Assembly (NCBI GenBank): GCA_020059045.1
Contig: JAGVCW010000021.1
Location: 27,821-91,820, forward strand
DNA: 64,000 bases
Source of the DNA: Minisyncoccota bacterium
Lineage (GTDB): Bacteria > Patescibacteriota > Minisyncoccia > Phycocordibacterales > Zambryskibacteraceae
Direction of reading: 5' to 3'
Made by a program: the position numbers and the translations under genes. The stretch's first letter is position 1, and every line of letters starts with the position of its first letter. Below the pieces are notes generated by a model. The model made no database searches. It saw only the letters and a list, made by a program, of their open reading frames with translations, and was not told the origin of the DNA. Positions 7,209 to 23,032 of this stretch are shown here, piece after piece.

Positions 7209-7817
7209 GTGAAATTTATCCTCGCAAAAAAGAATAGAATGTCAGAAGTCTTTACTGAGAGTGGTTTGGTAATTCCTGTTACTATTCTTTCTGCTACTCC
7301 TATGGTGGTAACTCAGATGAAAGATGAGTCGACCGACGGGTACAAAGCTGTACAAGTAGGATTTGGTACACGCAGAGAAAAGAGAATAAACAAGGCGGTA
7401 AAAGGGCATACCAAGGAGCTTGGCAATTTTCTAAAGCTAAAAGAATTTCGCCTCAAGGATGATACATTTGTCCGCGGTGACAAGATAGATGTTTCTGTCT
7501 TTACTGCAGGAGATGTGGTTGAAGTCTCAGCCATTTCTAAGGGTAAAGGTTTCCAAGGTGTCGTGAAGCGCCACGGATTTGCCGGTGGTCCACGAAGTCA
7601 TGGGCAGAAACACTCAGAGCGTGAGCCAGGATCTATCGGCGGAGGATTGCGTACACATGTTCCGAAAGGTATGCGCATGGCAGGGCGAATGGGTGGCGAT
7701 CGTATAACCGTAAGGAATCTTAAAGTTGTCGAGGTTAATCCTACAGAGAATATTATTTTAGTTTCTGGCGCGGTGCCGGGGAGAAGAGGAACGATTGTCG
7801 AAATCAGAGGTAAATAA
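7209..7817 (+). CDS. rplC: 50S ribosomal protein L3
   Basis: GTG start. KGKGFQGVVKRHGFAGGP region, and position within the S10 operon. Confidence 0.93.
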   Translation: MKFILAKKNRMSEVFTESGLVIPVTILSATPMVVTQMKDESTDGYKAVQVGFGTRREKRINKAVKGHTKELGNFLKLKEFRLKDDTFVRGDKIDVSVFTAGDVVEVSAISKGKGFQGVVKRHGFAGGPRSHGQKHSEREPGSIGGGLRTHVPKGMRMAGRMGGDRITVRNLKVVEVNPTENIILVSGAVPGRRGTIVEIRGK

Positions 7818-7888
7818 GTTGTAGATGTTCTAAATGTTATATATGTCTGACAATTACAACAACTAGAACAATTACAACAATTAGAACC
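7818..7888. repeat. Family-A hairpin element, copy A1 (rplC-rplD spacer)
   Basis: Imperfect arms GTTGTAGATGTTCTA.. and ..TAGAACAATTACAAC around the apex ATGTCTGACA. Confidence 0.7.
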
Positions 7889-9050: not shown

Positions 9051-9225
9051 AAATTCAACGAACGAAGTGAGTATGAATTACTTAACCCCAACAAATTTTA
9101 TAGATACACAATTACCCAATTATTCTTGTGTATTTAATAACCACGAGTTATTATCCTTGGGCAATTTCTCAACGATAAAATTTGAGGGGGTCATGATTTT
9201 CTAATCGCTCTGCTCAAGAAAATCT
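9051..9225. repeat. Family-B nested hairpin element, copy B2 (rplW-rplB spacer)
   Basis: 5' arm is AACGAACGAAGTGAGTATGAATTACTTAACCCC. 3' arm is GGGGGTCATGATTTTCTAATCGCTCTGCTCAAGAAAATC, running into the ATG. Confidence 0.75.
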
Positions 9226-10065
9226 ATGAAACATTACAAACCAACAACCAAATCGCGAAGACAGATGACCGGTATAGACTACGGGAAAGTTTTGACCGCG
9301 AAAGATCCTTTGAAAAGTCTTACTCATGGAACTAAGCGTGATGTAGGCCGCAACCACCATGGTCGTGTTACAACACGTCACAAGGGAGGTGGGCACAAGC
9401 GTCTTTTCAGAGACATTGATTTTACATACAACAAATTTGATATTCCATTCAAAGTTTTAACAGTAGAATACGATCCAAACAGAACTGGTTTCATTGGCAT
9501 TGTAGTCTACAAGGATGGAGAAAAGAGATATGTCTTACTCCACAAAGGAGCGCGTGTTGGTGATACCTATATAGTTTCAGCTAAGGCTCCAGAGACAGTG
9601 GGCAACCGCCTGCCACTTGGCAAAATCACAGTGGGTACTTTCGTGTACAACGTAGAAGTTAAACCTCGTGGAGGTGCAAGGCTTGCAAGAAGCGCAGGTA
9701 ACTACATAGAAGTTGTTGCAAAGGATGCAGGCTACGTGGATCTTAAAATGCCATCTACAGAAGTAAGAAAAGTTTTAGAGACTTGCTGGGCGACAATCGG
9801 TGAAGTATCAAACGATGAGAACAGACTAGTAAATATCGGAAAAGCTGGAAGAAGTCGCTGGCTTGGTATAAGGCCTACTGTTCGTGGTTCTGCTATGAAC
9901 CCAGTAGATCATCCACACGGTGGAGGAGAGGGTCGTTCAGGACGCGGACGACGTCGAGCAGTGAGTGCATTTGGCAAACCAACAGGCAAGGGGCAGAAGT
10001 CTCGTACTCCAAAGAAATATTCAAACAAATTTATTGTTCGTCGCAGAAAAGTAGGAAAGAAGTAG
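9226..10065 (+). CDS. rplB: 50S ribosomal protein L2
   Basis: GRNHHGRVTTRHKGGGHKR and HPHGGGEGR signatures. Confidence 0.96.
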   Translation: MKHYKPTTKSRRQMTGIDYGKVLTAKDPLKSLTHGTKRDVGRNHHGRVTTRHKGGGHKRLFRDIDFTYNKFDIPFKVLTVEYDPNRTGFIGIVVYKDGEKRYVLLHKGARVGDTYIVSAKAPETVGNRLPLGKITVGTFVYNVEVKPRGGARLARSAGNYIEVVAKDAGYVDLKMPSTEVRKVLETCWATIGEVSNDENRLVNIGKAGRSRWLGIRPTVRGSAMNPVDHPHGGGEGRSGRGRRRAVSAFGKPTGKGQKSRTPKKYSNKFIVRRRKVGKK

Positions 10066-10103
10066 GATGATAAAGAGTAACCTACGACCGACAACACTAC
10101 TGA

Positions 10104-10121
10104 GTGGAAGCCGAGCTTCCA
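10104..10121. repeat. 18-nt GC hairpin GTGGAAGCCGAGCTTCCA, copy 1
   Basis: The identical 18-mer recurs at 19099-19116. Both copies lie just after the last r-protein gene before an operon interruption. Confidence 0.7.
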
Positions 10122-10154
10122 AAAATGTCTGTATTTCTTGCATAGCAGTGTAAA

Positions 10155-10182
10155 TAAAAAAGCCCCGCATGTTTATGGGGCT
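10155..10182 (-). terminator. Intrinsic terminator of the minus-strand MYG1-like gene
   Basis: AGCCCC/GGGGCT stem, with a T-run on the minus strand (A-run at 10155-10160). Confidence 0.65.
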
Positions 10183-10186
10183 ACGG

Positions 10187-11155
10187 TTATACTGTATCAA
10201 GCACAGCTTGTATCTCTGCGGCCAGTGCATTGGCTTCAGCCGCGTCTCTACTCTCATTTTCCTCAAGTTGAGCAGAGTCAACTGGTACTTCTCCAGGCAG
10301 AAGTGCAAGTTCAGCAAGTCGCAAAGCACCCTCTCTACTCTCGGCTACGATTAGGTATCGGTTTTGGTGGCAAAACACGGCATCTCCTACCCCGGTGATT
10401 TCCTGAAGTTCAAGACCTCTCATACCTGCCCACTCTCTTGGTAACAAGCGAGGCGAAGTTGTATCAGTAGCTCTGTGCCAGCGTTTCACTGTCTGTACGA
10501 GCCAGCCGACCCTTTTGGGGTACACGACGAGGACTATTTCTGGGAAGTTTCTACTTACGTAGTGATCCCAACGGCATGAGTCATCAAGGAGTAAAACCTG
10601 TGGGCTTAAGTGCTTCTCTACAGCTCTCTTGACCACCTCTTCTCCTCGAATCTCTTCTTTTGCGCGGAAGATTGCACCACTTATGTTTGCTCGTGCAAAC
10701 GCAAGAGCAATATCCCAGTCACTTGGCTTAAATGTAGCTACTGCACTTGAAATGCTGTATGGCCGGATTTCACCAGCTTTGTATCTTACCAGAGTATACC
10801 TGTTGTCTGCCGCATCTATGGGTATAACCATGTGCCTCTCAATTTCTTCAGCTATCCGAGTGTCTTGAGCAATTCGCAGTCCGAAATGTTTCCATACAAG
10901 ACCGAAGGCAGCGTATGGAACACCATTTGCTCGTCTACCAGCACCTCCTTGCATATGGTGATCGAAGTCTAGAGTTTCTGGGTTGTACACTCCTCCTACA
11001 TCAATACGTACATTGCTTTCAGCTATTACTCTTGGATCGCGGCTACGCACCACAAGAGCTTCCATGTATTCCGGAAGCAATTGTAAGGCCGCGATCGCGT
11101 ACACCTCGTCTGCATGGATGGGTCCGTCGTGGGTCACAATTTGCACAGACAACAC
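10187..11155 (-). CDS. MYG1/UPF0160-family metal-dependent hydrolase-like protein
   Basis: VTHDGPIHADEVYA, VVRSRDP and IDVGGVYNPETLDFDHH match the family layout I recall (HxGxFHxDE .. DVGG..(Y/F)DHH). Confidence 0.7.
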   Translation of the reverse strand: MLSVQIVTHDGPIHADEVYAIAALQLLPEYMEALVVRSRDPRVIAESNVRIDVGGVYNPETLDFDHHMQGGAGRRANGVPYAAFGLVWKHFGLRIAQDTRIAEEIERHMVIPIDAADNRYTLVRYKAGEIRPYSISSAVATFKPSDWDIALAFARANISGAIFRAKEEIRGEEVVKRAVEKHLSPQVLLLDDSCRWDHYVSRNFPEIVLVVYPKRVGWLVQTVKRWHRATDTTSPRLLPREWAGMRGLELQEITGVGDAVFCHQNRYLIVAESREGALRLAELALLPGEVPVDSAQLEENESRDAAEANALAAEIQAVLDTV

Positions 11156-11369
11156 CTCAAAATGGGAGTGAAATGCTTCTATAACAAAGGGCAGTACAAA
11201 ATACAGAGTACATATTTTTAGAAAATAGTCAAGATTTGCTAGATTTGCAATAAGTCTATGAGTTTATGGGTATTAGTTATTTTCTCACAATATAAGTGCT
11301 TATTTACTCCCAAAATATGGCCTAAGATAGCCCTTTTTGGGGATTTATGTAATTTAAATCAAAAAGTTC

Positions 11370-11397
11370 TTGACAAATAAATTGTATATGTTATACT
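11370..11397 (+). promoter_or_regulatory. Sigma70-type promoter
   Basis: TTGACA (11370-11375), 16-nt spacer, TATACT (11392-11397). Confidence 0.6.
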
Positions 11398-11479
11398 ATA
11401 GGTAGTAGTAAGTAGTACATTTCAGTTGCAGTTCCCCGTTCAAGGTAGTCCACTCAGCACACCTTATGGAGGTATTACC

Positions 11480-12199
11480 ATGGCTAGCAAGAAGAAGCAG
11501 CAGGTAGCAACGAGCCCGGTTCCCAGCATGCAGGCCGCGGTTGCCACGATGGCGGAAGAGGCTCCCGCCGAGAGCAGGCAGTTCTCTTCGAGCCAGCCGA
11601 AGTGGTCCCCGACTCAGTTCATTGAGACCCTGGGGAAGATCAAGGAAGAACTCCCGGCCGCCGTGTCGAACTTCAAGATCGTGAAGAAGATCGTGGGTCT
11701 CGAGATGGACGGCAAGGATGAGATGGCCTTTCGGCAGATGATTCAGCTCGCCGGGGCCGTTGCTACCAAAGCATCCCAGAAGGCGGACGCGGAAGACCCA
11801 TCAAAGGTGTATCTGGATGCCAGGAAGGTCCAGGCTGCGCTCACCGCATGTGAGCGTGCCAATTCCAATCTGGCACGCACCTTCGACAGGTACATCGGGA
11901 ACTGGCGGAAGCGGGCTGACACCATGATGTCGAACGCAAGGCGCAAGGACCCGGACGTGATCGAGCGCGAGAGTGACACAATCGCGGACAACATGGAGGC
12001 ACTGGATGAGGCACTTGAAGGAAAGAAGCCTCGTCAAGAGGTCCTCGAGATCTACAACAGGACCTTCACCCATCTTCGCGAGCTCTCAAAGGAAGCAACG
12101 GCGCTTGCTACTGAAGCTTCGAGGAGAGAGCAGATCGAAACGATCGGCTCACTCGGGGACGACATCCTCGACTCTCTCGCGGAACTCGACAGCATCTAA
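11480..12199 (+). CDS. GC-rich helical orphan protein (239 aa)
   Basis: ATG at 11480 follows GGAGG. It has its own promoter and terminator. Hand counts give 42/60 and 38/60 G+C in two lines, far above the flanks. Confidence 0.6.
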   Translation: MASKKKQQVATSPVPSMQAAVATMAEEAPAESRQFSSSQPKWSPTQFIETLGKIKEELPAAVSNFKIVKKIVGLEMDGKDEMAFRQMIQLAGAVATKASQKADAEDPSKVYLDARKVQAALTACERANSNLARTFDRYIGNWRKRADTMMSNARRKDPDVIERESDTIADNMEALDEALEGKKPRQEVLEIYNRTFTHLRELSKEATALATEASRREQIETIGSLGDDILDSLAELDSI

Positions 12200-12217
12200 G
12201 TGCTGCGAGCAGTAGTA

Positions 12218-12254
12218 CCCCACGAAAAACCCCCAAGGTATCGTGGGGTTTTTC
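12218..12254 (+). terminator. Intrinsic terminator
   Basis: CCCCACGA / TCGTGGGG 8-bp stem followed by TTTTTC. Confidence 0.7.
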
Positions 12255-12472
12255 TTTTATTGCAATTGCGGAGAATACCATGACAGCTAGGCTGCATGGG
12301 ATGAATCCGCAAATACATACTATATGTCGGCGGAGCCGACTCCTCTTGCAACAAAGTTTGCCCTGATGCCTCGTCCTGCTACTCGCCGAGGCTTTGCGAG
12401 GGAATAGCTTACTGCGATTATAGGACGAGGCCAATTTTATTAAGATAATAATCTTTCCTGTATAATTTATAT

Positions 12473-13441
12473 ATGGAATACAAAACTATTATTTTGCCTA
12501 CTAGGCCTCAGGTGGATACTGTTATTTCTATATTCGTATTAAAGCACTTTGGTGAAAGTTTCTTCCCTGGTATTAAGACTGCTAGCTATGAGTTCATGTC
12601 CAACTTACCAGCTGGTGCGAGCGAAGAGAGCTTGGCAGAGGAAGGAAGGCTCCCAATAGATATTGGTGGTGGACGATTTGATCATCACAACAAAGAGGAG
12701 AAAACCACTGTTCTAAATCTTTTGACTAGCTTTCTTGCTCAAGGGAATAATCCTGCTTTAATAAAACTCAAGAAGTTTGTAGAAAGAGATGATTTTTATG
12801 GTAAAGGAATAATATCCTCTGACCCCCTTGATCGTGCTTTCGGTTTGCCCGGGCTTATTGCTTGTCTTAATAAAAAGTATTCAAGTAACCCAGCGAAAGT
12901 GCTGGATATAATTCTTCCAGTTGTTGATGCGTACTACGAAGAAGAAGAGAAGAGGGCAATAGGAATGCCTCTTGAACTTAAGGAGAAAATAGCAAATGGT
13001 AAAGCTAGAGTATTTAATACAGAGCAGAGAGGCAGAAAACTTAAATGCATTTTCATAGAAAGCGATAACATAAGTCTACCGGGTTTTCTTCGATCTAAGA
13101 TTGGAGGGGAGCACGATGTGATTGCAATAAGGCTATCGTCTGGACACACAAATATTCTTACGAGTCTCAAAAATACAGTTGATTTGCGTTCACTCGCAGT
13201 GCTTATTCGCTTACAAGAAGCCGAGGCGCGAGGTGTGAAGCTAGATGGAGTGCCGGAAGATTTAGCAGTACCGGGTAAAATCGATGAAGTACTTAATTGG
13301 TACTACGATACAGCTACTAACTCTTTACTAAATGGTGGTCCTAATCCAAGTGAGACCGACCCAACGGGAATAGCATCTTTCGAATTTGAAAAAATAATGG
13401 AAATAGGGCTCTCTGAGAAACTCTGGTCTCCATCACGATAA
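12473..13441 (+). CDS. Divergent UPF0160/MYG1-like paralog that has lost the N-terminal metal motif
   Basis: Keeps IDIGGGRFDHH. Where the other copy has THDGPIHADE, this one has LPTRPQVDTV. Composition is AT-rich (20/60 G+C in line 12481). Confidence 0.45.
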   Translation: MEYKTIILPTRPQVDTVISIFVLKHFGESFFPGIKTASYEFMSNLPAGASEESLAEEGRLPIDIGGGRFDHHNKEEKTTVLNLLTSFLAQGNNPALIKLKKFVERDDFYGKGIISSDPLDRAFGLPGLIACLNKKYSSNPAKVLDIILPVVDAYYEEEEKRAIGMPLELKEKIANGKARVFNTEQRGRKLKCIFIESDNISLPGFLRSKIGGEHDVIAIRLSSGHTNILTSLKNTVDLRSLAVLIRLQEAEARGVKLDGVPEDLAVPGKIDEVLNWYYDTATNSLLNGGPNPSETDPTGIASFEFEKIMEIGLSEKLWSPSR

Positions 13442-13486
13442 GCCAAATACCCTTTATATTAGCCACGTAATGGTCTATAAAAATCC

Positions 13487-13515
13487 TTGACTTTTATAGA
13501 CCATTATGCTATTAT
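13487..13515 (+). promoter_or_regulatory. Sigma70-type promoter
   Basis: TTGACT (13487-13492), 17-nt spacer, TATTAT (13510-13515). Confidence 0.55.
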
Positions 13516-13564
13516 TATACAAGAACAGCAGTTTCACACACCGACCCTTTCACAAGGAGTTTGC

Positions 13565-14155
13565 ATGGTAAAAAGCAAGGAAGTCGTCGACCCCGCATTT
13601 GTCGGAGAAGTGGAAGCGGCGCTCGTGTACCTCACGGTGCCCGGCAATCTGAAGTATCTTATACCCGGGTGGGTAAAAGAGGCGGACTTCTCGAATACTC
13701 CAAAGTCCGAGCGCCAGATGGCCCCACGATCCGATAAGTTGTTCCAAGTTGCACAAGCGAGGATGGATGGGGTGCTCGGGGATCTTGCCGGCGCTGGTTT
13801 CCTCCCCTCTGAAGTGTTTTATCTGAATCGGGATGGTGGCGCGCGGCGGGTTCGTATCACATGCAAGCGCTTTGGCGCACCGCTGACACTCGATCAGGTG
13901 CAGTCTCTCATTCCCCTCACTACCGAGCGGATATGGGATGTGATGGCTCATCGGACGGCTGCTACCAGGAACATTCCATGGGAGCACATTTCGATCAATG
14001 CCGGACGCCCCGATCATGCTCCAGAAGGGGGATTCGAAGCGGTTCGCGTGGTCGAAGGTCGAGTCTCGGTAGTTTCCCTTCTCAACACGGACGAGCTGCG
14101 GAAGGCGTCTGAGTCCATCATCGGCCTCCTCGAATCGCTGCAGATAACACGCTAA
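13565..14155 (+). CDS. GC-rich orphan protein (196 aa)
   Basis: ATG at 13565 follows AAGGAG, downstream of the 13487 promoter, and a terminator follows. The 13550..14182 minus-strand ORF is its mirror. Confidence 0.55.
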   Translation: MVKSKEVVDPAFVGEVEAALVYLTVPGNLKYLIPGWVKEADFSNTPKSERQMAPRSDKLFQVAQARMDGVLGDLAGAGFLPSEVFYLNRDGGARRVRITCKRFGAPLTLDQVQSLIPLTTERIWDVMAHRTAATRNIPWEHISINAGRPDHAPEGGFEAVRVVEGRVSVVSLLNTDELRKASESIIGLLESLQITR

Positions 14156-14183
14156 TCCTCCTTGCGATAACAGGGGGGTCAAC

Positions 14184-14212
14184 GAGCCAGACAGAAATGT
14201 CTGGCTCTTTTC
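14184..14212 (+). terminator. Intrinsic terminator
   Basis: GAGCCAGAC / GTCTGGCTC stem followed by a T-run. Confidence 0.7.
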
Positions 14213-14219
14213 TATTTAA

Positions 14220-14246
14220 TTGACAACAAGTGTCTATTTCTATAAT
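14220..14246 (+). promoter_or_regulatory. Restart promoter for rpsS and the rest of the S10 operon
   Basis: TTGACA (14220-14225) and TATAAT (14241-14246) with a short 15-nt spacer. A GAAGCTC/GAGCTTT hairpin plus T-run follows in the leader. Confidence 0.5.
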
Positions 14247-14349
14247 ATCTTGAGAAGCTCATCCGAGCTTTTTGTATTCTAATTTTAGTTTTAGTAGCTG
14301 GGCAGGAGTAACCCTTCGACGAGCTCAGGGTAAAAATCTAAAGATTTTT

Positions 14350-14709
14350 GTGACACGATCATCAAAAAAAGGCCCCTATGTATATGAGCGCCTTCTGAAG
14401 AAAATTGAAGGCAAAAAGCCCGAGCAAGCTGGGGTTATTAAGACATGGGCAAGGGACAGCCAGATCGCTCCCGAGATGGTTGGCTACACATTTGGAGTAC
14501 ATAATGGTAAGGATCATATTGAAGTTTTTGTAACTGAAGACATGGTGGGTCATAGACTCGGCGAATTCTCACCTACACGTAAGTTCGTTAAACATGGCGG
14601 TAAGATGCAGAAAGAACTTGAGCAGAAGAAGAAAGAATCAGAAATAGCATCTGCTCAAGCGGCCAAAGCCTCTGTAAGTGCAGGAGCAAATACAGTACCG
14701 GCGAAGTAG
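14350..14709 (+). CDS. rpsS: 30S ribosomal protein S19 with a C-terminal tail
   Basis: I set the start to GTG 14350 (..[15 protein letters not shown]). [21 protein letters not shown] core. Confidence 0.9.
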
Positions 14710-14813
14710 CTTAAATGTTCTAAGTGTTGTATGTGTTATACATGTCATACAACTTCAACAATTCAAACAAATAAAACAACTAGAACATCTATAACAATTA
14801 AAACCGCGAATTT
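14710..14813. repeat. Family-A hairpin element, copy A2 (rpsS-rplV spacer)
   Basis: TGTTCTAAGTGTTGTATG.. and ..CAACTAGAACATCTATAACA arms around the apex CATGTCATACAAC. Confidence 0.65.
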
Positions 14814-15212
14814 ATGAGCGAAATAACTGCACAACTAAATGATTACAGACAGGCACCTCGTAAGGTGCGAGTTGTTGCAGGTCTTGTAAGAGGCAAGTCG
14901 GTCAAAGATGCTTTGGTGTCACTTGAATTTTTGCCTAAGCGTGCAGCAGATCCAATCTCAAAGCTTATAAGATCAGCGGTTGCAAACGCTCGATCTCAGA
15001 ACATTGAAACCGAGAATCTTATTCTAAAGGAACTACGTGTAGACGGAGGAAAAATATTATATCGAAGACGCAGCGCATCCCGCGGCCGAGCACCAGCTAT
15101 ACGAAAGAGGACAAGCCACATTCTCGTTGTCTTATCGGAAGACACCAAGAAGAAGTTGAAAAAGCAAAATGCAAAAAGTAAAAGTAATTCAGACGTAAGC
15201 GCTAAAAAATAA
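14814..15212 (+). CDS. rplV: 50S ribosomal protein L22 with a Lys-rich tail
   Basis: QAPRKVRVVAGLVRGKSVKDAL core, and operon position. Confidence 0.92.
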   Translation: MSEITAQLNDYRQAPRKVRVVAGLVRGKSVKDALVSLEFLPKRAADPISKLIRSAVANARSQNIETENLILKELRVDGGKILYRRRSASRGRAPAIRKRTSHILVVLSEDTKKKLKKQNAKSKSNSDVSAKK

Positions 15213-15248
15213 TTTTAAATTTTGATTTTTAAATTTTAATTTATATTC

Positions 15249-15929
15249 ATGAGTCATACAGTTCACCCATTTTCACACAGACTAGGTATCATAAGAGATT
15301 GGAGATCTCGATGGTTTGGTACAAAGAAGAATTACAAAGAATTTCTTCGCGGTGATCTTTTGATACGAGCATTTCTAGAAGGAAAGCTTCGTGGTATGTA
15401 CGTAAGTACTATTGAAATCGAGCGTAATGAAAAAGTTCTGCGCATTATAGTTGAGACTTCTCGACCCGGTATGATCATTGGTCGTAGTGGCGATGGAGCA
15501 GTCCGGCTCAAAGACCAGATCGTAGCCATGCTTCGCCGAGAGAAGGTGGGTCGTGCTAACGAAGAGGTTCGTCTCGATATTAAGGAGGTTAGATCTCCAG
15601 AATCAAATGCTCACATTGTTTCTCAGATGATAGGAGAGGGACTTGAGAAAAGACTTCCATACAGAAGAGTTGTGAAGCAAATGGTAGAAAAGGTTATGGC
15701 CAATCGTGATGTGAAAGGGGTAAAGGTAACTGTTGCAGGAAGACTCGGGGGCGCAAGTATTGCACGATCAGAGACAAGAAAGCTTGGTAGAATTCCTCTT
15801 CAGACATTTCGTGCTGATGTAGAGTTCGCACGGCACGAAGCTCGTCTCCCATATGGCAATCTGGGTATAAAAGTTTGGATTTACAAAGGTGACATTTTCT
15901 CCACCAAGGTTGGTGGAGAAAAGTCATAA
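15249..15929 (+). CDS. rpsC: 30S ribosomal protein S3
   Basis: HPFSHRLGIIRDWRSRWF, then KH and S3-C regions, with GIKVWIYKGDIF near the end. Confidence 0.95.
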   Translation: MSHTVHPFSHRLGIIRDWRSRWFGTKKNYKEFLRGDLLIRAFLEGKLRGMYVSTIEIERNEKVLRIIVETSRPGMIIGRSGDGAVRLKDQIVAMLRREKVGRANEEVRLDIKEVRSPESNAHIVSQMIGEGLEKRLPYRRVVKQMVEKVMANRDVKGVKVTVAGRLGGASIARSETRKLGRIPLQTFRADVEFARHEARLPYGNLGIKVWIYKGDIFSTKVGGEKS

Positions 15930-16396
15930 TTGTTCTACTTGTTATAGTTGTTCTATATGTCAGAGAGATTTCAAGGATATAGGTTTGAAAAATTGGAAGT
16001 TTGGCAGGTGGGAATGCGTATAGTAAGTAAGGTATATTCAATTACGAAAAGGTTTCCTAAAGACGAGACCTACGCCCTGTCTGACCAGTTAAAAAGAGCA
16101 GCCACTTCGATAGTTTTAAACTTGGCAGAAGGCTCAGGACAGCCAACAAAAAAGTTATTCTCTCTTTATATTGAACGTGCCAAGTCCTCAACACTTGAAT
16201 GTGTGGCTTGTACAAAAATTGCTGTTCAGGAAAAACTTGTAGAACCTGATGAGGTTAAATCTTTGGAAGAGCTACTTGCGGAAGAGTATTTTAAACTTAT
16301 TGCGCTAGCAAAATCTATGAGGTAAGATCTTCCTACTCTAGCTTGTAACCTATCTAACACCTATAACAACTAGAACATATATAACACTTACAACCA
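15930..16396. repeat. Family-A hairpin element, copy A3, with an ORF inserted at its apex
   Basis: Left arm TGTTCTACTTGTTATAG pairs with right arm CTATAACAACTAGAACA. The apex ATGTCAGAG supplies ATG 15957 of the enclosed ORF. Confidence 0.65.
15948..16325 (+). CDS. Four-helix-bundle protein of the 23S rRNA intervening-sequence protein family
   Basis: YRFEKLEVWQ..FPKDETYALSDQLKRAATSIVLNLAEGSG..AKSSTLE matches the family pattern I recall. The start is TTG 15948 or ATG 15957. Confidence 0.75.
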   Translation: MFYMSERFQGYRFEKLEVWQVGMRIVSKVYSITKRFPKDETYALSDQLKRAATSIVLNLAEGSGQPTKKLFSLYIERAKSSTLECVACTKIAVQEKLVEPDEVKSLEELLAEEYFKLIALAKSMR

Positions 16397-16813
16397 ATGC
16401 TTTTCCCAAAAAAAGTAAAATATCGAAAATGGCACACTATGCGCAAGAACCCCAAGAAGGTGGGTTCTGCTACTCGTGGTATAGAAGTTAACTTCGGATC
16501 CTATGGTCTGAAAGCTCTTGAGTATGGCCGTATTAAGTCGAACCAGATTGAGTCAGCAAGAAAGGTTATGTCTCGCTCACTCGGAAAGACTGGCAAGATT
16601 TGGATCAGGATTTTCCCAGACATGCCATACACAGCGAAACCTGCCGAAGTTAAGCTCGGTAAAGGAAAAGGTGATCTCCAAGGTTACGTCGCTCCAGTTC
16701 ACGCAGGCAGAGTACTTTTTGAAGTAGATGGAGTAACGGAGGCTGTGGCAAGAGAGTCGCTCCGTAAAGCAGGAACAAAGCTACCAGTGAAAACAAGGAT
16801 AGTGGCTAGGTAA
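16397..16813 (+). CDS. rplP: 50S ribosomal protein L16
   Basis: MLFPKKVKYRKWH.., then GKGKGDLQGYVAPVHAGRVLFEV. Confidence 0.95.
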   Translation: MLFPKKVKYRKWHTMRKNPKKVGSATRGIEVNFGSYGLKALEYGRIKSNQIESARKVMSRSLGKTGKIWIRIFPDMPYTAKPAEVKLGKGKGDLQGYVAPVHAGRVLFEVDGVTEAVARESLRKAGTKLPVKTRIVAR

Positions 16814-16903
16814 ATAGCGCTTGTTGTAAATGATGTATATGTTCTAAGTGTCTGACAAATACAACATCTACAACATTTAAAAACATTTACAACAAAATAT
16901 AGT
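16814..16903. repeat. Family-A hairpin element, copy A4 (rplP-rpmC spacer)
   Basis: TTGTTGTAAATGATGTATATGTTCTAAG arm, apex GTGTCTGACA, then AATACAACATCTACAACATTT arm. Confidence 0.7.
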
Positions 16904-17095
16904 ATGTCTAAGGAACTCAAAGAAAAAAACGAAAAGGAATTAAGTAAAATGCTTGCGGATAATCAAGAGAATTTACGCTCTTTTCGATTTGGTATCGCAG
17001 GTTCGAAGAATCGCAATGTGAAAGAGGGACGGGCAATTCGCAAAGACATTGCAAGGATCCAAACTGAGATGAGTGCTCGCAAGAAGGCTAAATAG
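16904..17095 (+). CDS. rpmC: 50S ribosomal protein L29
   Basis: 63-aa helical product (ELKEKNEKELSKML..LRSFRF) at the expected operon position. Confidence 0.88.
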   Translation: MSKELKEKNEKELSKMLADNQENLRSFRFGIAGSKNRNVKEGRAIRKDIARIQTEMSARKKAK

Positions 17096-17142
17096 ACAAG
17101 AGTCTGAAAATATGTAGTATAAACACACTAACTTATAGAGAG

Positions 17143-17382
17143 ATGAGTGCAATATCCACAAAAAATAAAGAATTTACAGGTACAGTAGTGTCAGACAAAA
17201 TGAAAGACACGATTGTTGTTAGTGTGGAGAGGTTTACGAAGCACCCTCGTTACGGCAAGTACATCCGAAGCCGTCGTAAGTTCAAGGTTCACGATGTAGG
17301 AAATACGAAAAAGATTGGAGAAAAAGTAGTATTCATTGCTTGTCGCCCAATTTCAAAAGATAAGAGATTCAGAGTTATTTAA
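17143..17382 (+). CDS. rpsQ: 30S ribosomal protein S17
   Basis: GTVVSDKMKDTIVVSVERFTKHPRYGKY core. Confidence 0.93.
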   Translation: MSAISTKNKEFTGTVVSDKMKDTIVVSVERFTKHPRYGKYIRSRRKFKVHDVGNTKKIGEKVVFIACRPISKDKRFRVI

Positions 17383-17558
17383 GGAGCTTGGCGACTATAA
17401 ATAACCTGACCCCCCATCATTTTTAACAATGAAACCTGAAACATTAAAAAAAGATATTGAAAAACATTTCTATTATAGTATCCGATGAAACATATTTTAA
17501 AAATGATGAGGGATGGTGATTTTCAAAAACTCACTATCGCTCGTTAAGAAAATCAACC
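17383..17558. repeat. Family-B nested hairpin element, copy B3 (rpsQ-rplN spacer)
   Basis: Inner stem is CCCCATCATTTTTAA / TTAAAAATGATGAGGG. The 3' end ACTCACTATCGCTCGTTAAGAAAATCAACC is identical to copy B6. Confidence 0.7.
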
Positions 17559-17930
17559 ATGATCCAACCCCGCTCAATAGTAAAAATAGCAGACAACTCA
17601 GGCGCCAAAATCGGTAGAGTTTTCAAGGTGCTTGGTGGGTCTAAGAAGAGATACGCACGTATTGGTGATGTGGTGGTATTGTCGGTTCAGGTAGCACAAC
17701 CTAGAAAGTCAGTGAAAAAGAAAGACATTTTGTACGCGGTGGTAGCACGTCAGAGAACACCATTTCGCAGACAAGATGGTTCCTACATTCGTTTCGATGA
17801 GAATGCAGTGATAATTGTTGATAAAGCAAAGCACGAGCCTATCGCAGGACGTGTTTTCGGACCGATCCCAAGAGAGCTTGGCGAGATGGGATTCCAGCAG
17901 GTAATATCATTAGCACAAGAGGTAGTTTAG
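17559..17930 (+). CDS. rplN: 50S ribosomal protein L14
   Basis: MIQPRSIVKIADNSGAK.. core. Confidence 0.96.
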   Translation: MIQPRSIVKIADNSGAKIGRVFKVLGGSKKRYARIGDVVVLSVQVAQPRKSVKKKDILYAVVARQRTPFRRQDGSYIRFDENAVIIVDKAKHEPIAGRVFGPIPRELGEMGFQQVISLAQEVV

Positions 17931-18149
17931 AAAATCAAGGAGTGAAACGACTATGATTTACTTAACCCCACCTAAATTTTGCATCGAAGACAGAAGCGCA
18001 GTGCGCGGCCGAGTAGGCCAAGCGGTCATGGGCGAAGCGCTGCGCCTCGAAAGGTTTGTGACTATTCGTCACTCGCACTTCTTGTGGTAATGTAAAAGCA
18101 AAATTTAGGCGGGGTCATGATTTTCCAATCGCTCCGCTCAAAAAAATCA
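17931..18149. repeat. Family-B nested hairpin element, copy B4 (rplN-rplX spacer), with a GC-rich insert
   Basis: Arms are ATGATTTACTTAACCCCACCTAAATTTT and AAAATTTAGGCGGGGTCATGATTTT. The loop holds a GC-rich segment (GCGCAG..CTGCGC). Confidence 0.75.
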
Positions 18150-18455
18150 ATGAAAATAAAAAGGGATGACAACGTAATAGTGATAGGAGGCAAGGACAGA
18201 GGCAAAACTGGTAAAGTTTTGCGTGCTTTTCCTCGTGAATCGAAAGTTGTCATCTCGGGCGTAAACTTGAAAAAACTTCATAAGCGTCCCACAAAATCCG
18301 GGCAGAAGGGACAAGTCGTTGAGCAAGCTGCACCCATACATGTATCAAATGTTATGATTGTGGATCCAAAATCTGGGAAGAGAACAAGAGTTCTACGCAA
18401 GATGGAAGGAGACAAGAAAGTCAGAGTAGCAAAAAGTAGCGGCACCACGCTGTAA
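18150..18455 (+). CDS. rplX: 50S ribosomal protein L24
   Basis: I set the start to ATG 18150 (MKIKRDDNVIVIGGKDRGKTGKV, the KOW motif). Confidence 0.92.
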   Translation: MKIKRDDNVIVIGGKDRGKTGKVLRAFPRESKVVISGVNLKKLHKRPTKSGQKGQVVEQAAPIHVSNVMIVDPKSGKRTRVLRKMEGDKKVRVAKSSGTTL

Positions 18456-18532
18456 AGTTATAAATGTTGTAATTGTTGTAGTGTCAGACATTTATAACAT
18501 CTACAACATTTAGAACAATTTCAACATACAAA
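18456..18532. repeat. Family-A hairpin element, copy A5 (rplX-rplE spacer)
   Basis: AAATGTTGTAATTGTTGTAG arm, apex GTGTCAGACA, then TTTATAACATCTACAACATTT arm. Confidence 0.7.
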
Positions 18533-19081
18533 ATGCAAAGCATAAAAGAAAAAACTCAAAAAACGTTTTCATCACTTAAGGCCACTCGTGGTTATAAAAA
18601 TCCCATGCAATCTCCACGTATTGTCAAAGTTGTTGTGAGTGTAGGAACGGGCTCATTTAAGGATGCGAAGAAAAAGGAACTTGCCCTGGATCGTCTTACG
18701 AAGATTACCGGCCAGCGCCCATCAGTACGCGGTGCAAAGCAGTCAATTGCCGCATTTAAAGTCCGACAGGGAGACCCGGTAGGACTTGCAGTCACACTTC
18801 GTGGCAAGAGAATGTACGATTTTCTAGATAAGTTAATCCATGTGGCCCTACCTCGTACCAAGGACTTCAGAGGAGTATCTTCTAAAGCTATTGATAAGAT
18901 GGGCAATTACACTCTAGGTATTAAGGAGCACACTATTTTCCCAGAGACAGCAGACGAGGAACTTAAAGACGTTTTTGGGCTAGCAATAACAATAGTTACG
19001 ACCGCAAGAACGAAGGAGGAGACCAAAGAATTTCTAGATTATCTAAGTTTCCCTTTCAAAAAAACAGAAGAGAAGAAGTAA
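18533..19081 (+). CDS. rplE: 50S ribosomal protein L5
   Basis: PRIVKVVVSVGTG.., then GNYTLGIKEHTIFPE. Confidence 0.95.
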   Translation: MQSIKEKTQKTFSSLKATRGYKNPMQSPRIVKVVVSVGTGSFKDAKKKELALDRLTKITGQRPSVRGAKQSIAAFKVRQGDPVGLAVTLRGKRMYDFLDKLIHVALPRTKDFRGVSSKAIDKMGNYTLGIKEHTIFPETADEELKDVFGLAITIVTTARTKEETKEFLDYLSFPFKKTEEKK

Positions 19082-19084
19082 ATC

Positions 19085-19120
19085 CGTGGAAGCGAAGCGT
19101 GGAAGCCGAGCTTCCACGGA
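19085..19120. repeat. GC hairpin with the shared 18-mer GTGGAAGCCGAGCTTCCA, copy 2
   Basis: CCGTGGAAGC..GCTTCCACGG stem. The 18-mer at 19099-19116 is identical to 10104-10121. Confidence 0.7.
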
Positions 19121-19184
19121 ACATACTGTGTTCAGAATCTTTAAATGCTTGTAAACTTCATATAAATTTGTTTCTATAATAGAT

Positions 19185-19391
19185 ATGACAGAAGAATCAC
19201 TAAACTTAAACGAGACAAAGGAGAAGAGCGCGTTTTCCATGGGCGATCATTCAGATTTTATTGCAAGAGAGCTTGACCAAGTGAATAGGGAGTTACTCGA
19301 TGTAAGTTTAGACATACCAGATGGGGAGGTATCAGGTTTGGAAGAAGTGTATGATGCGATGATAAGGGATCTAAAAATCGAAAATAAATAA
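19185..19391 (+). CDS. Small acidic hypothetical protein
   Basis: 68-codon ATG ORF. No motif. Confidence 0.35.
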   Translation: MTEESLNLNETKEKSAFSMGDHSDFIARELDQVNRELLDVSLDIPDGEVSGLEEVYDAMIRDLKIENK

Positions 19392-19410
19392 TTCAAGTTC
19401 TCACTTTCGT

Positions 19411-19752
19411 ATGAACAAATTTTTATCTTTAGTAACGCGTATTCTGGGTGAGCTAGAATTTTCGCAAGAAAACAAAGAAAAAGTTGCATATGATCTCAAT
19501 CGCCTAATTATGACAAAGGTTGTCATAGCACTTCTTGATGAGGCCCCAGAGAATGTTCAAACTGAAGTTGAAAAACTTTTAAGTGCTGGTGAAACACTTG
19601 AAGTTGCAAATATCCTCAAGTCTACATTTACGACTGAAAGATTCGAAGAAGTAAGCCTTCATATTACTCGAGATGTGGTTCACAAATACTTAAGCGAATT
19701 GTTTGCAAAAACTCACAAGGAAAACAAAGAGAAACTTGTCGCTTCACTCTAA
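19411..19752 (+). CDS. Hypothetical helical protein
   Basis: 113-codon ATG ORF that ends at the hairpin shared with the convergent RNA gene. Confidence 0.4.
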   Translation: MNKFLSLVTRILGELEFSQENKEKVAYDLNRLIMTKVVIALLDEAPENVQTEVEKLLSAGETLEVANILKSTFTTERFEEVSLHITRDVVHKYLSELFAKTHKENKEKLVASL

Positions 19753-19780
19753 TATTTGTGCTGGGCTCTAATAGCACAGT

Positions 19781-20281
19781 ACTTTTGTATAAAAACAAAC
19801 CCGCTCCTTGGTGAGGGCGGGCGATAGTGGGAAGAAAACTTCCAATGGTTTGGAAACTGCATGAAACCGGGTACTTCCTCCCTTTGTCTAGTCAATGGCG
19901 ATTGGGCGCCTATGACATCCTCTTGGCTGTAAACCTCGTAACTCACCATGAGTTACGGCAGGCTAACGCCAACTAAGCTGAGGACTTCGACTGGGCTGTC
20001 TCTGCACGTGGTCCCGAATGAGACGCCTAGTGAGCGAATGACCCGAACGCAGACTACCCGGTTTCACACTTTGTAATGAACTTATATCTTGCACTCTCTT
20101 TCGAGAGATGATTTCGTACCCTGGGGCGGCGAGCGGGCCGAAGCGCCGTCACGACCCCAGGGACTTCCTCGATATTTAACCTCTGATGCCGAGTACCGCA
20201 TCGGAGGCGATCCCCGTTAGGACGTAAGCGAATGCACCGGTTTAGGGCACATCACTGTATCCGAGCCCGCATGGGGGAGCT
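19781..20281 (-). ncRNA. Roughly 500-nt GC-rich structured RNA with RNase P RNA-like motifs; identity unresolved
   Basis: About 640 bp hold no ORF apart from one 66-aa shadow. Consensus promoter upstream; terminator CCCGC..GCGGG plus UUUGUUUUU at 19781-19811. GAAA-capped hairpin, 8-bp hairpin at 19928-19946, 12-bp long-range helix, and GAGGAAGUCC and ACCCGGUUUCA motifs. Confidence 0.6.
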
Positions 20282-20286
20282 TGTGA

Positions 20287-20314
20287 GCTTATGTATATTA
20301 TAGCATGTACACGT
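20287..20314 (-). promoter_or_regulatory. Consensus sigma70 promoter of the structured RNA
   Basis: The minus strand reads TTGACA (20314-20309), a 16-nt spacer, then TATAAT (20292-20287). Confidence 0.7.
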
Positions 20315-20592
20315 TATTTGTCAAGGAGTTTCTCATTATCTTTTCTGTGACACATGAAATATGGCTAAAACTAAGGCTTATTTGAATATCACTTTAAAGT
20401 AGAGGGAAATTTGTTGGCAAGTTCTTGAAATTATCCGCTTAACCCTTATTTTATTGACTTTATACGGCTCAATTGCTAAGCTGTTGCAAAGCTTTTGGAA
20501 GCTTTTTTCTTTACTTAATCGCTTCATTCGTCAATATTCTTCCTTTTGAGGGCTTTCGCTCATGCGAGGTCGCTAGAGGATAAACAATATTT

Positions 20593-20778
20593 GTGGCCAA
20601 GAAATCAGTTATAGCAAGATCAGTTAAAAAGCCTAAATTCTCGACTCGCATCGTGAGGCGTTGTTTCCGTTGTGGTCGAAAGCGTGGCTATATGCAAGAT
20701 TTTGATCTATGTAGAATATGTTTTCGCGAATTTGCAAATGAAGGCAAAATCCCGGGCGTTAAGAAATCAAGTTGGTAA
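20593..20778 (+). CDS. rpsN: 30S ribosomal protein S14, zinc-ribbon type Z
   Basis: 61 aa with a GTG start. [17 protein letters not shown] carries two CxxC pairs. Confidence 0.93.
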
Positions 20779-20881
20779 TAAAAGATTGTTCTAGATGTTG
20801 TAATTGATATACATGTTATAAATGTCTGACAAATACAACAACTAAAACATTTTGAAACAAATATAACATCTCAAACATTAC
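20779..20881. repeat. Family-A hairpin element, copy A6 (rpsN-rpsH spacer)
   Basis: TTGTTCTAGATGTTGTAATTG arm, apex ATGTCTGACA, then AATACAACAACTAAAACA arm. Confidence 0.7.
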
Positions 20882-21265
20882 ATGGATCCCATCGCTGACA
20901 TGATAATAAGAATCAAGAATGCAGGAGAATCCCGCAAGGATACAGTGGCTTTTCCATATTCAAATTTGAAAGCAAGCATCTGCAAAACTCTTCTAGATAG
21001 TGGATACATAAAATCTCTTGTTATAAAAGGGAAGATTGCCAAATCAATAGAAGTCGGACTTATTTACAACGGCAAGTTCCCAAAGATCCAAGGTGTGAAG
21101 AGACTTTCGAAGCCTTCTCGTCGTCTATACAAGGCCTCAAGTGATCTACGGCCGGTTAAGAGAGGGTATGGATCTCTCATCATGTCTACTCCGAAGGGAA
21201 TAATGGTAGGAGAGCATGCCCGTAAGTCTAAAGTCGGTGGTGAGGCATTATTTGAAATATGGTAA
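20882..21265 (+). CDS. rpsH: 30S ribosomal protein S8
   Basis: MDPIADMIIRIKNA.., ending ..GGEALFEIW. Confidence 0.95.
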   Translation: MDPIADMIIRIKNAGESRKDTVAFPYSNLKASICKTLLDSGYIKSLVIKGKIAKSIEVGLIYNGKFPKIQGVKRLSKPSRRLYKASSDLRPVKRGYGSLIMSTPKGIMVGEHARKSKVGGEALFEIW

Positions 21266-21353
21266 TGGCTTTGTCTAAATTTTACGAACGAAGTGAAATA
21301 AAATTTAGTAACAAAACATTAACTCACTATCGTTCGTTAAGAAAATCAACCAC
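21266..21353. repeat. Family-B element, short copy B5 (rpsH-rplF spacer)
   Basis: 88 nt that differ at 2 positions from 21888-21975. Arms are ACGAACGAAGTGA and TCACTATCGTTCGT. Confidence 0.85.
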
Positions 21354-21887
21354 ATGAGCAGAATCGGAAAAGGAAAAATAGATATCCCAGAGAAAACTGA
21401 AGTTATTCTTCTTGCAGACACTGTCGTGGTAAAGGGGCCATTAGGTGAATTGTCTCACAAAGTTCACTCAGATATAGGTATTGAGATTGCTTCCGGAAGC
21501 GTAACATTTGTTCCCAAAGTTAATACTCTTGAAGCAAATGCTCTCTGGGGCACGACGTCTTCTCACTTGTCCAATATGATAGATGGAGTGAACAAACCTT
21601 TTGAAAAGAAATTAGTTTTAGAAGGCATTGGATATAAGGTAGAGGTAAAGGGAGATAAGATTCATCTTGCACTAGGCTTTTCTCATCCTGTAGAAGTTTT
21701 AATACCAAAAGGCTTGAATGTAAAAGTTGAGAAAAATGCCGTAACGATATCTGGCATTAGCAAGGACGATGTCGGGAGTTTCACAGCACGTCTGCGTGAC
21801 TTGAAGAAGCCGGAACCTTACAAAGGCAAAGGATTCAAATATTTTGGCGAAGTGATCAAGATTAAGCAGGGTAAAAAGTCAGTATAA
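21354..21887 (+). CDS. rplF: 50S ribosomal protein L6
   Basis: MSRIGKGKIDIP.., then EPYKGKGFKY. Confidence 0.95.
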   Translation: MSRIGKGKIDIPEKTEVILLADTVVVKGPLGELSHKVHSDIGIEIASGSVTFVPKVNTLEANALWGTTSSHLSNMIDGVNKPFEKKLVLEGIGYKVEVKGDKIHLALGFSHPVEVLIPKGLNVKVEKNAVTISGISKDDVGSFTARLRDLKKPEPYKGKGFKYFGEVIKIKQGKKSV

Positions 21888-21975
21888 TGGCTTTGTCTAA
21901 ATTTTATGAACGAAGTGAAATAAAATTTAGTAACAAAACATTAACTCACTATCGCTCGTTAAGAAAATCAACCAC
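21888..21975. repeat. Family-B element, short copy B6 (rplF-rplR spacer)
   Basis: Near-identical to 21266-21353 (C/T at ..TTTTA[C/T]GAAC and T/C at ..ATCG[T/C]TCG). Confidence 0.85.
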
Positions 21976-22329
21976 ATGAAGACAACTAATCATAAAAGCT
22001 CAAAAAGAAATCGTAGACATACAAAAATCAGGACGAAAGTTTCTGGTACTTCTAGCCGCCCACGTCTTTCTGTATTTCGCTCCAATATGTATCTCTATGC
22101 TCAAGTCATAGATGATGAGAGTGGTAAAACACTTTTCTCCATTTCATCTAAAGGTATGAAGAAGGGAGGTGTCGGGTTTGAATCAGCTCGTGAACTGGGT
22201 AAGACGCTTGCCAAGTCTGTTATCGCAGGCAACATCAAGAAGGTTGTGTTTGATCGGGGTGGATATATGTATACTGGTAAGGTTCGTGCTCTTGCAGACG
22301 GAGCTCGCGAAGGAGGTCTAGAATTCTAA
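21976..22329 (+). CDS. rplR: 50S ribosomal protein L18
   Basis: RPRLSVFRSNMYLYAQVIDD.., then FDRGGYMYTGKVRALADGAREGGLEF. Confidence 0.95.
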   Translation: MKTTNHKSSKRNRRHTKIRTKVSGTSSRPRLSVFRSNMYLYAQVIDDESGKTLFSISSKGMKKGGVGFESARELGKTLAKSVIAGNIKKVVFDRGGYMYTGKVRALADGAREGGLEF

Positions 22330-22351
22330 TCAAATATTAATAATCAAATCA

Positions 22352-23005
22352 ATGCCGAACGAAGAAGAAAAAATTTCAACAACTGAACCAACGACACCAG
22401 CAGATGTAAATGTAGATGTTCCTATTGCTGCATCTGTCGCCACATCTCCCGACCCTCAAGCTGATGGTAAGAGAGGTTTTGTAAGGAGAGACCATGGTGA
22501 GAGGAAGAAAAATCCTCGCAAGGCACCAAGACGAGAGGCTAGAGTTAAACCAGAATTCGACAATAAAATGGTTTCAATTAGACGTGTAACTCGTGTGGTA
22601 GCTGGAGGACGCAGGTTTAGCTTCTCTGTGACTCTTGTTGCAGGTAATCGCAAAGGGACTGTTGGAGTGGGTCAAGGTAAAGCATCAGACACTCCTATTG
22701 CGATCGATAAGGCCATGAGAGATGCGAAGAAAAACATGATCCAAATTCACACCACGAAGGACATGTCGATACCTCACGAGGTTGCAGCTAAATATGGAAG
22801 TTCAAGAGTGCTCATCATGCCAGCTCCTGGCCGCGGGATGCTCGCAGGTAGCTCAATAAGAACAGTTCTGGAGCTTGCAGGTCTTACTGGAATAAATGCC
22901 AAGCTTCTTTCCGGGAGTAAAAACAGAGCAAACAATGCAAAAGCTGCTGTAGAAGCGCTTCGCAAACTAGCAAGAACACAAGTAAGAACAGCAGTGAAGA
23001 AATAA
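22352..23005 (+). CDS. rpsE: 30S ribosomal protein S5 with an N-terminal extension of about 55 aa
   Basis: VSIRRVTRVVAGGRRFSFSVTLVAGN.., then S5 C-terminal domain. Confidence 0.94.
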   Translation: MPNEEEKISTTEPTTPADVNVDVPIAASVATSPDPQADGKRGFVRRDHGERKKNPRKAPRREARVKPEFDNKMVSIRRVTRVVAGGRRFSFSVTLVAGNRKGTVGVGQGKASDTPIAIDKAMRDAKKNMIQIHTTKDMSIPHEVAAKYGSSRVLIMPAPGRGMLAGSSIRTVLELAGLTGINAKLLSGSKNRANNAKAAVEALRKLARTQVRTAVKK

Positions 23006-23032
23006 TTTACATCATCCAAACCATTTCCGCCC

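Follow-up and report, generated by a model that had tools for sequence, protein, structure and literature searches.

The 64,000-nucleotide (nt) window analyzed here (the whole stretch of DNA under study, taken from contig JAGVCW010000021.1 of a Minisyncoccota bacterium, assembly GCA_020059045.1) carries an operon of ribosomal protein (r-protein) genes. The spacer between two of these genes, rpsC and rplP, is 467 nt long and holds a single open reading frame (ORF). Specifically, the ORF encodes a small four-helix-bundle protein of the family named after the intervening sequences (IVSs) of 23S rRNA, and on either side of it lies an array of short tandem repeats, the two arrays being inverted relative to each other; we call these its arms. 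We refer to the gene and its arms together as the cassette. Five hairpins made of the same units, each lacking the ORF, fill other spacers of the same operon; with the cassette, they constitute family A. A sequence-only reading of the window had proposed that the family-A elements are IVS-like cassettes residing in an mRNA rather than in rRNA, and that the five short copies lost the ORF.

The gene is real, and its length depends on the start codon. The sequence-only reading gave the product 125 amino acids (aa), which is correct only from the TTG at 15948 that opens the entry in the ORF listing (15948-16325). Alignment with 34 homologs and an identical 122-aa database protein (P0001) favor the ATG at 15957, which that reading had also highlighted, and from this codon the protein is 122 aa long. 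The assignment to the four-helix-bundle, 23S-IVS family, one of two points on which the proposal had been staked, is borne out both by profile hidden Markov models (HMMs) and by fold. Specifically, the protein matches Pfam PF05635, “23S rRNA-intervening sequence protein” (IVP), (E=5e-27; 94.6 bits, cut-off 33.8), and NCBIfam TIGR02436, “four helix bundle protein,” with 79.2 bits against a cut-off of 24. The family profile, compared with the PDB, matches 2gsc (XCC0516; E=2e-27). An AlphaFold (AF2) monomer model (predicted local distance difference test, pLDDT, 93.3) consists of four long helices, at residues 14-30, 41-60, 65-91, and 97-121. Foldseek likewise ranks 2gsc first for this model (template modeling, TM, score 0.91; root-mean-square deviation 0.8 Å), followed by 2rld (BT_0352) and then by Avd (4dwl, 8ub7; TM ~0.77), a protein of diversity-generating retroelements (DGRs). 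A homopentameric ring is known for 2gsc, 2rld, and Avd. The cassette protein is mildly basic, with an isoelectric point (pI) of 8.85 (family median 9.0), and has no transposase-family match in Pfam or NCBIfam. Helix 2 carries an R-x3-S-x3-N-x2-E motif, of which R47, S51, N55, and E58 are invariant in a 35-sequence alignment; this motif of the PF05635 family has been described (PMC3936711).

Each arm is a tandem array of 9-nt units, an architecture that the sequence-only reading missed. The 5′ units are of the nTGTTnTAn type and the 3′ units are of the reverse complement type. The arms fit tightly between the flanking genes: the TAA stop codon of rpsC (15927-15929) abuts the first 5′ unit, the start codon of the ORF lies inside the last 5′ unit, ATGTCAGAG, and the 3′ arm stops 1 nt short of the rplP ATG. 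That the arms pair with each other had been claimed on the basis of two 17-mers, and these sequences, TGTTCTACTTGTTATAG (15931-15947) and CTATAACAACTAGAACA (16361-16377), indeed complement each other at 16 of 17 positions. Complementarity extends more widely, at 76% across the 49 nt of 15927-15975 and 16342-16390. The best 24-nt segment of the arms pairs at 20 of 24 positions; none of 500 composition-preserving shuffles, which score 13.7 ± 1.1, does as well, and the minimum-energy fold of 15920-16400 closes through the arms. The cassette therefore possesses inverted repeats that are predicted to form a stem around an ORF, one hallmark of an IVS.

The repeat unit is concentrated in one part of the window. 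With at most one mismatch allowed, TGTTNTANNTGTTNTA has 35 matches in the window versus 0.48 expected, and 33 of the 35 sit at six loci, the cassette and the five ORF-less copies, all within 7817-20877 (Table 1). This distribution upholds the earlier grouping of these elements. The cluster spans 13 kb, and all six copies have the orientation of the operon. The ORF-less copies display three to five units per arm around a center, [AG]TGTC[AT][GT]AC (ATGTCWGAC-like), that resembles the first codons of the ORF and is present in all five, so the noted likeness between the start of the ORF and the apex of the short copies holds. Alignment of the copies reveals 39 invariant periodic columns. The ORF-less arms pair above shuffles (0-1 of 500 shuffles reach the observed value), and the predicted RNA folds range from -13 to -22 kcal/mol, with z-scores from -1.2 to -3.8. 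The six loci thus amount to several short copies that share ends with one gene-bearing partner. Family-A copies occupy 5 of 24 co-directional junctions in the r-protein region of the window versus 0 of 27 elsewhere (Fisher p=0.018). No Rfam family matches the hairpins at the gathering threshold or at E<=1, and a scan of the window revealed no further IVP gene copies and no LemA or M48 peptidase genes.

Table 1. Features of the window, beginning with the cassette and its host genes
Feature	Position	Strand	Evidence
rpsC (ribosomal protein S3), upstream host gene	15249..15929	+	Pfam Ribosomal_S3_C and KH_2
5′ arm, tandem 9-nt units TTGTTCTAC / TTGTTATAG / TTGTTCTAT / ATGTCAGAG	15927..15965	+	Repeat search; Tandem Repeats Finder (TRF), period 9; motif search
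Four-helix-bundle protein gene, 122 aa (PF05635 / TIGR02436, “23S rRNA intervening sequence protein”)	15957..16325	+	HMM; homolog alignment; fold
3′ arm, tandem 9-nt units AACCTATCT / AACACCTAT / AACAACTAG / AACATATAT / AACACTTAC / AACC	16342..16395	+	Repeat search; TRF; shuffle test
rplP (ribosomal protein L16), downstream host gene	16397..16813	+	Pfam Ribosomal_L16
ORF-less family-A hairpin, fills rplC/rplD spacer	7817..7888	+	Motif; RNA fold -18 kcal/mol, z -3.3; shuffle; alignment
ORF-less family-A hairpin, rpsS/rplV spacer	14716..14805	+	Motif; z -1.2; shuffle; alignment
ORF-less family-A hairpin, rplP/rpmC spacer	16822..16894	+	Motif; z -2.5; shuffle; alignment
ORF-less family-A hairpin, rplX/rplE spacer	18456..18526	+	Motif; -21.7 kcal/mol, z -3.8; shuffle; alignment
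ORF-less family-A hairpin, S14-like ORF to rpsH	20787..20877	+	Motif; z -2.1; shuffle; alignment
Family B, near-identical 88-nt copies, rpsH/rplF and rplF/rplR spacers	21266-21353 and 21888-21975
Family B, four longer copies with common ends ACGAACGAAGTGAG ... CTCACTATCGCTCGTTAAGAAAATCAACC	7027-7208, 9051-9225, 17383-17558, 17931-18116

Comparison with relatives reveals the corresponding empty sites. In the region covered by 80 metagenomic relatives whose rplP is 67-86% identical (778 kb in total), the four-helix-bundle gene is present in 0 of 80, family-A arrays are essentially absent, and the rpsC/rplP spacer is usually 1-30 nt. In the two closest relatives, as judged by rplB (83-84% identity), every corresponding junction has a spacer of 1-31 nt (14-31 nt between rpsC and rplP), and the r-protein spacers contain no arrays. 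The named rplB matches are consistent with a Patescibacteria / Parcubacteria-type bacterium as the source of the window. Because the six copies are missing from the closest and from 80 further relatives, the six family-A elements are lineage-specific insertions. This presence/absence polymorphism is seen among relatives that are only 67-86% identical in r-proteins.

In other genomes, the gene and the arms occur together. Patescibacteria homologs with 55-75% identity are found in no fewer than 12 different genomic settings. One (locus L001) has a Ser-hydrolase-family gene on one side and an HSP20 gene on the other, many separate the genes for LemA and an M48 peptidase (L002-L007, L168-L175), and the rest occupy at least 10 further settings. 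In nearly all members of this clade, GTTCTAnnn/GTTGTAnnn units upstream and nnnTAGAAC/nnnTACAAC units downstream directly flank the ORF, and by a strict regular expression, ~25 of the 31 genes in the window gene's protein clade have arrays on both flanks. Conservation of the arms with the ORF, in other genomes and in unrelated contexts, was the second point on which the sequence-only proposal had been staked, and it too is confirmed. The first unit often supplies the host stop codon (for example, the GTTCTAA that ends LemA), and the last unit ends 3-6 nt ahead of the next ATG in related cassettes.

Other clades present the same layout, with lineage-specific units that are mostly 7 nt long. Specifically, the units are TTGGCTG/CAGCCAA in Bacteroidia, GGCTCAG/CCCGAGC in Planctomycetales, AGTTCGG/CCGAACT in Nitrospirota, and AGTTCAT/ATGAACT in an Elusimicrobia metagenome-assembled genome. 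In Xanthomonas (L296-L299), the ortholog of the crystallized XCC0516 (3501-3830) lies between accB and accC, and its 30-nt, 83% complementary arms consist of four GGGAATC-type units that run from the accB stop (3430-3459) and four CCCATTC-type units that end at the accC ATG (3843-3872). Family-wide, flank complementarity exceeds the 95th percentile of same-locus controls in 51 of 77 loci, and the flanks are tandem-periodic in 41-44 of 77, with periods of almost only 7 and 9. In a neighbor-joining protein tree, the 9-nt GTTnTA type forms one contiguous clade that includes the window gene, and close relatives have units in common. Previous studies place PF05635 ORFs in 16S and 23S rRNA insertions of the Candidate Phyla Radiation (CPR) (PMC11270868) and between cas genes, such as cmr3 and cmr2 (PMC3936711). 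Given that the gene-plus-arms layout recurs across many phyla, it has the appearance of a mobile cassette able to enter operons in addition to rRNA. A search of viral contigs returned no relative of the cassette protein; the arm pattern returns at least 120 unspecific tandem-repeat matches in them and is uninformative.

Variants of the layout were also encountered. In L020 (4935-5843), 9-nt arms enclose a 132-aa ORF in addition to the IVP gene, the ORF having a motif that resembles part of a SET domain (RFINHSRNPN, identified by eye), and in L030 (2435-4259), the left and right arrays stand 1.7 kb apart around other sequence. At 1767-1880 of L030, and at the same site in L033 and L040, the 3′ units reach into the part of the downstream gene that encodes its N terminus, and this gene carries the P-loop motif GLDGSGKST; the units have apparently been co-opted as an N-terminal extension. 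ORF-less hairpins of like type exist at L022 6881-6982 (directly upstream of a tRNA gene), at L048 1835-1901 and L073 ~383-470 (both adjoining IVP genes), and at L143 1255-1340 (a 7-nt GGTTCTA version in the rpsQ/rplN spacer).

The cassettes also share a particular relationship to their neighbors and to the coding strand. In 23 of 24 Patescibacteria cassettes, representing at least 12 independent sites, the upstream neighbor is co-directional and ends 27-107 nt before the ORF. Scans revealed no promoter- or terminator-like site inside the window cassette, with counts at background, and the nearest promoter-like site, 14220-14248, lies upstream of rpsS. On the coding strand, the arms are G-rich at 5′ and C-rich at 3′ in 26 of 30 and 38 of 48 loci (p ~6e-5 each), and this polarity holds across clades with unrelated unit sequences.

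Taken together, we consider it probable that the rpsC/rplP element is a selfish cassette of the IVS type, one whose insertion site was an mRNA operon instead of rRNA, and that it is accompanied by miniature derivatives. In substance, family, fold, and the conservation of arms with ORF support what the sequence-only reading had proposed. The cassette is inherited and relocated as a whole unit, in sense orientation between co-directional genes. In the window, it would be co-transcribed with rpsS-rplV-rpsC-...-rplP, and in the transcript, the arms would fold back such that the host stop and start codons meet at the stem base. If so, the juxtaposition of stop and start would allow the insertion to do little harm, much as an rRNA helix tolerates being lengthened by an IVS. 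By analogy with 23S IVSs, the stem would probably be cut by RNase III. The repeats may also be read in a sequence-specific manner, with the encoded pentamer as the most plausible reader and autoregulation and/or propagation as the purpose; such a role is suggested because the motif and its strand polarity are conserved, the units co-vary with the protein tree, and the protein is basic. The ORF-less copies would be miniature, non-autonomous derivatives generated by internal deletion. Since ORF plus arms is the unit everywhere else, loss is the more economical direction, and we infer that the five copies lost the ORF.

Several points weigh against this interpretation. Transcription, folding, and cleavage of the cassette are all deduced, and we know of no catalytic activity, and recognize no catalytic site, in the four-helix-bundle protein. 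The arms are AU-rich and ~70-80% complementary, weaker than the stem of the Coxiella 23S IVS, as are the predicted folds of the ORF-less copies. A cassette's own arms pair at 25.2 of 36 positions versus 24.2 of 36 for arms taken from different cassettes, a marginal difference (p=0.05), and arm mismatches display no G-U bias (57 sense versus 56 antisense, with 184 transversions). No rRNA-resident cassette emerged when the 14 closest IVP loci were scanned with Rfam at the gathering threshold or when all loci were compared by blastn with the E. coli rrn operon; a copy with 9-nt arms inside rRNA is thus absent among the loci examined, where rRNA occurs nearby in L043 alone (a 16S gene, 1.3 kb downstream). 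Finally, the closest relatives are only 83-86% identical in r-proteins, making any “recent” insertion recent in a relative sense, and no target-site duplication is definable from junctions versus empty sites, the relatives being too divergent.

These points bear on what selection acts upon. Neither the self-versus-cross pairing test nor the G-U asymmetry test yields a compensatory signature in the arms, and we do not claim a conserved RNA stem. Given near-equal cross pairing and the lack of G-U bias, the conserved entity is therefore the inverted motif and not a particular stem. Moreover, because the arms pair less well than the Coxiella stem and lack a compensatory signature, pairing may not be their only or main function. 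Selection thus preserves the motif array in inverted orientation with fixed polarity, which suggests that sequence-specific recognition, most simply by the encoded pentamer, operates beside or instead of pairing. Evidence regarding an RNA-level versus a DNA-level role is mixed.

A more ambitious version of the cassette interpretation, which we advance tentatively, is that PF05635 proteins are the signature of a very large class of hairpin cassettes, spread across phyla, that invade operons and rRNA alike. Classical 23S IVSs would be the subset that landed in rRNA, the 7- and 9-nt repeats would be cognate sites with one unit per pentamer subunit, and gene-less hairpins would be non-autonomous satellites. 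Reading of one unit per subunit would liken the pentamer to the TRAP ring, which reads GAG repeats.

Recognition could also occur on DNA. In this unlikely scenario, the cassette resembles a transposon or foldback element, and its inverted 7-9-bp units serve as multiple binding sites in double-stranded DNA (dsDNA), reminiscent of the sub-terminal repeats of transposon ends. The encoded pentamer would bind them and confer specificity on a host nuclease or recombinase, and RNA pairing would be incidental. A motif that is conserved with neither a compensatory nor a G-U signature fits this idea, as do the near equality of self and cross complementarity, the correspondence of repeat type to protein phylogeny, the ability of arms to flank extra or other cargo (L020, L030), and the basic character of the family. 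However, a symmetrical dsDNA mechanism would not be expected to leave 23 of 24 cassettes in the sense direction, each following a co-directional gene, and it does not predict the conserved, strand-specific polarity of G-rich 5′ and C-rich 3′ arms. Nor is a catalytic partner gene linked to the cassette in the loci examined, and no target-site duplication was definable against the divergent empty sites.

It is quite improbable that the family-A hairpins are host signals for regulation or processing (mRNA stabilizers, RNase sites, or translational-coupling structures), one of which happened to receive the gene. While all six copies do reside in r-protein spacers, with the junction bias given above, and while the hairpins draw the upstream stop and the downstream start close, the closest and 80 further relatives have spacers of 1-31 nt without hairpins, and like arms flank the gene in non-ribosomal contexts of other genomes. 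The operon's translation signals would suit the idea: no Shine-Dalgarno-like motif precedes any of 21 operon gene starts (6640-23617), the leaders are A/C- or A/T-rich, and the 3′ arms yield A/C-rich leaders. The lack of an Rfam match, in turn, counts against it. Last, we reject the notion that the gene is a DGR remnant, that is, an orphan Avd accessory gene, despite its Avd-like fold (TM ~0.77) and weak matches to Avd models, because those matches fall far below cut-offs (DivGenRetAVD, NF033474, 21 bits versus 80; bAvd, PF22296, 17.6 versus 40), no reverse transcriptase or template repeat/variable repeat (TR/VR) pair lies nearby, the neighbors are r-protein genes, and the repeats are short tandem arrays and not a TR/VR pair.

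The operon and its surroundings harbor additional features. Other spacers of the r-protein operon are occupied by hairpins of a second type, family B (Table 1), and a family-B-type element is present between rpsC and rplP in one relative (L087). A TCGCTTCGCT / AGCGAAGCGA sub-motif is also present inside the arms of some IVP cassettes in other genomes (L020, L032, L037, L039, L040, L022, and L073). The tuf/rpsJ spacer (6511-6560) contains another 9/18-nt periodic hairpin with different units (AAGTTGnnn). Between rplB and rpsS lies a 4.2-kb block (10066-14271) with a MYG1/UPF0160 gene on the minus strand and three ORFs that have no Pfam matches; 3′ of these ORFs is a terminator-like hairpin (14184-14207), followed by the promoter-like site at 14220-14248. 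Many relatives carry blocks of 0.7-4.8 kb at the same junction. Between an unknown ORF (19411-19752) and the S14-like ORF, ~750 nt of GC-rich, structured-looking non-coding sequence (19753-20500) have no Rfam match at the gathering threshold or at E<=1. On the minus strand, ARAGORN predicts tRNA-Ile (anticodon TAT) at 48802-48876 and tRNA-Ser (anticodon ACT) at 61097-61186. Both anticodons are unusual for bacteria.

To our knowledge, the proteins encoded by rRNA IVSs have been without a known function since the early 1990s, despite solved structures and thousands of family members. The present analysis shows that the PF05635 gene is not a free-standing unit: it is almost always packaged between inverted, lineage-specific arrays of 7- or 9-nt repeats and inserted in sense orientation between presumably co-transcribed genes, such as rpsC/rplP, LemA/M48 peptidase, accB/accC, and, according to the literature, cmr3/cmr2. 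Gene-less hairpins are apparently left behind by it in some cases. The rRNA IVS could then be viewed as one case of a general operon-invading cassette, with ORF-less IVSs and some intergenic hairpins as possible relics. If the repeats are indeed cognate sites, reading them would be the first function assigned to the 30-year-old “S23p / IVS protein” family. The accB-XCC0516-accC arrangement in Xanthomonas provides a culturable system for tests of mechanism.

The protein family and the rRNA IVS were already known, and the tandem-arm PF05635 cassette outside rRNA appears to be a new variant of this known kind. In the literature consulted, which does not cover most subscription journals, PF05635 cassettes with tandem-repeat arms outside rRNA are not described, and no paper links IVP to short tandemly repeated repetitive (STRR) heptamers or to HEPN. 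The closest precedents in terms of the protein are the 23S IVSs with an S23p/PF05635 ORF in Leptospira, Coxiella burnetii, and Brucella and the CPR 16S/23S insertions, all of which encode the same protein family as the window. In Coxiella, three to four tandem heptamers (GACAGAT) lie upstream of the S23p ORF, and inverted repeats form a 28-bp terminal stem that is cut by RNase III (PMC4990558). The window cassette resembles such IVSs in that its ORF sits at the apex of a long terminal-inverted-repeat hairpin, tandem repeats adjoin the ORF start, the orientation is sense within a highly transcribed host RNA, and ORF-less short versions exist. It differs in that its host RNA is a polycistronic r-protein mRNA and not an rRNA helix, its arms are 9-nt, AU-rich arrays with ~76% pairing versus the near-perfect Coxiella stem, RNase III cleavage is only presumed, and six copies lie within 13 kb. 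The window contains no rRNA, so insertion in a 23S or 16S helix, which defines an IVS, is lacking; because it is not in rRNA, the cassette is not an IVS in the strict sense.

The structurally closest proteins, XCC0516 (2gsc) and BT_0352 (2rld), are structural-genomics pentamers labeled “S23 ribosomal protein family,” and for XCC0516 the likeness is evident in both the profile match and the TM score given above. XCC0516 shares the genetic setting as well, with its gene inside the accB/accC operon between inverted arms of 7-nt repeats, while the repeat unit and period differ and protein identity is <=30%. Avd offers the same four-helix-bundle fold. Within the DGR ribonucleoprotein, the basic Avd pentamer makes contact with structured RNA. 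The window gene, unlike Avd, has no reverse transcriptase or TR/VR and scores far below the Avd cut-offs. With respect to behavior at the level of the genome, the window element most resembles the arrangement of repetitive extragenic palindromes (REPs), or REPINs, with REP-associated tyrosine transposases (RAYTs). RAYTs are Y1 transposases with a known mechanism, whereas the PF05635 protein is a small four-helix bundle and not a transposase, and REPs and REPINs are built on a single GC-rich palindrome rather than on tandem arrays of 7-9-nt units. In both cases, however, one gene is bracketed by its own palindromic repeats, gene-less hairpins populate spacers, and the repeat type co-varies with the protein lineage.

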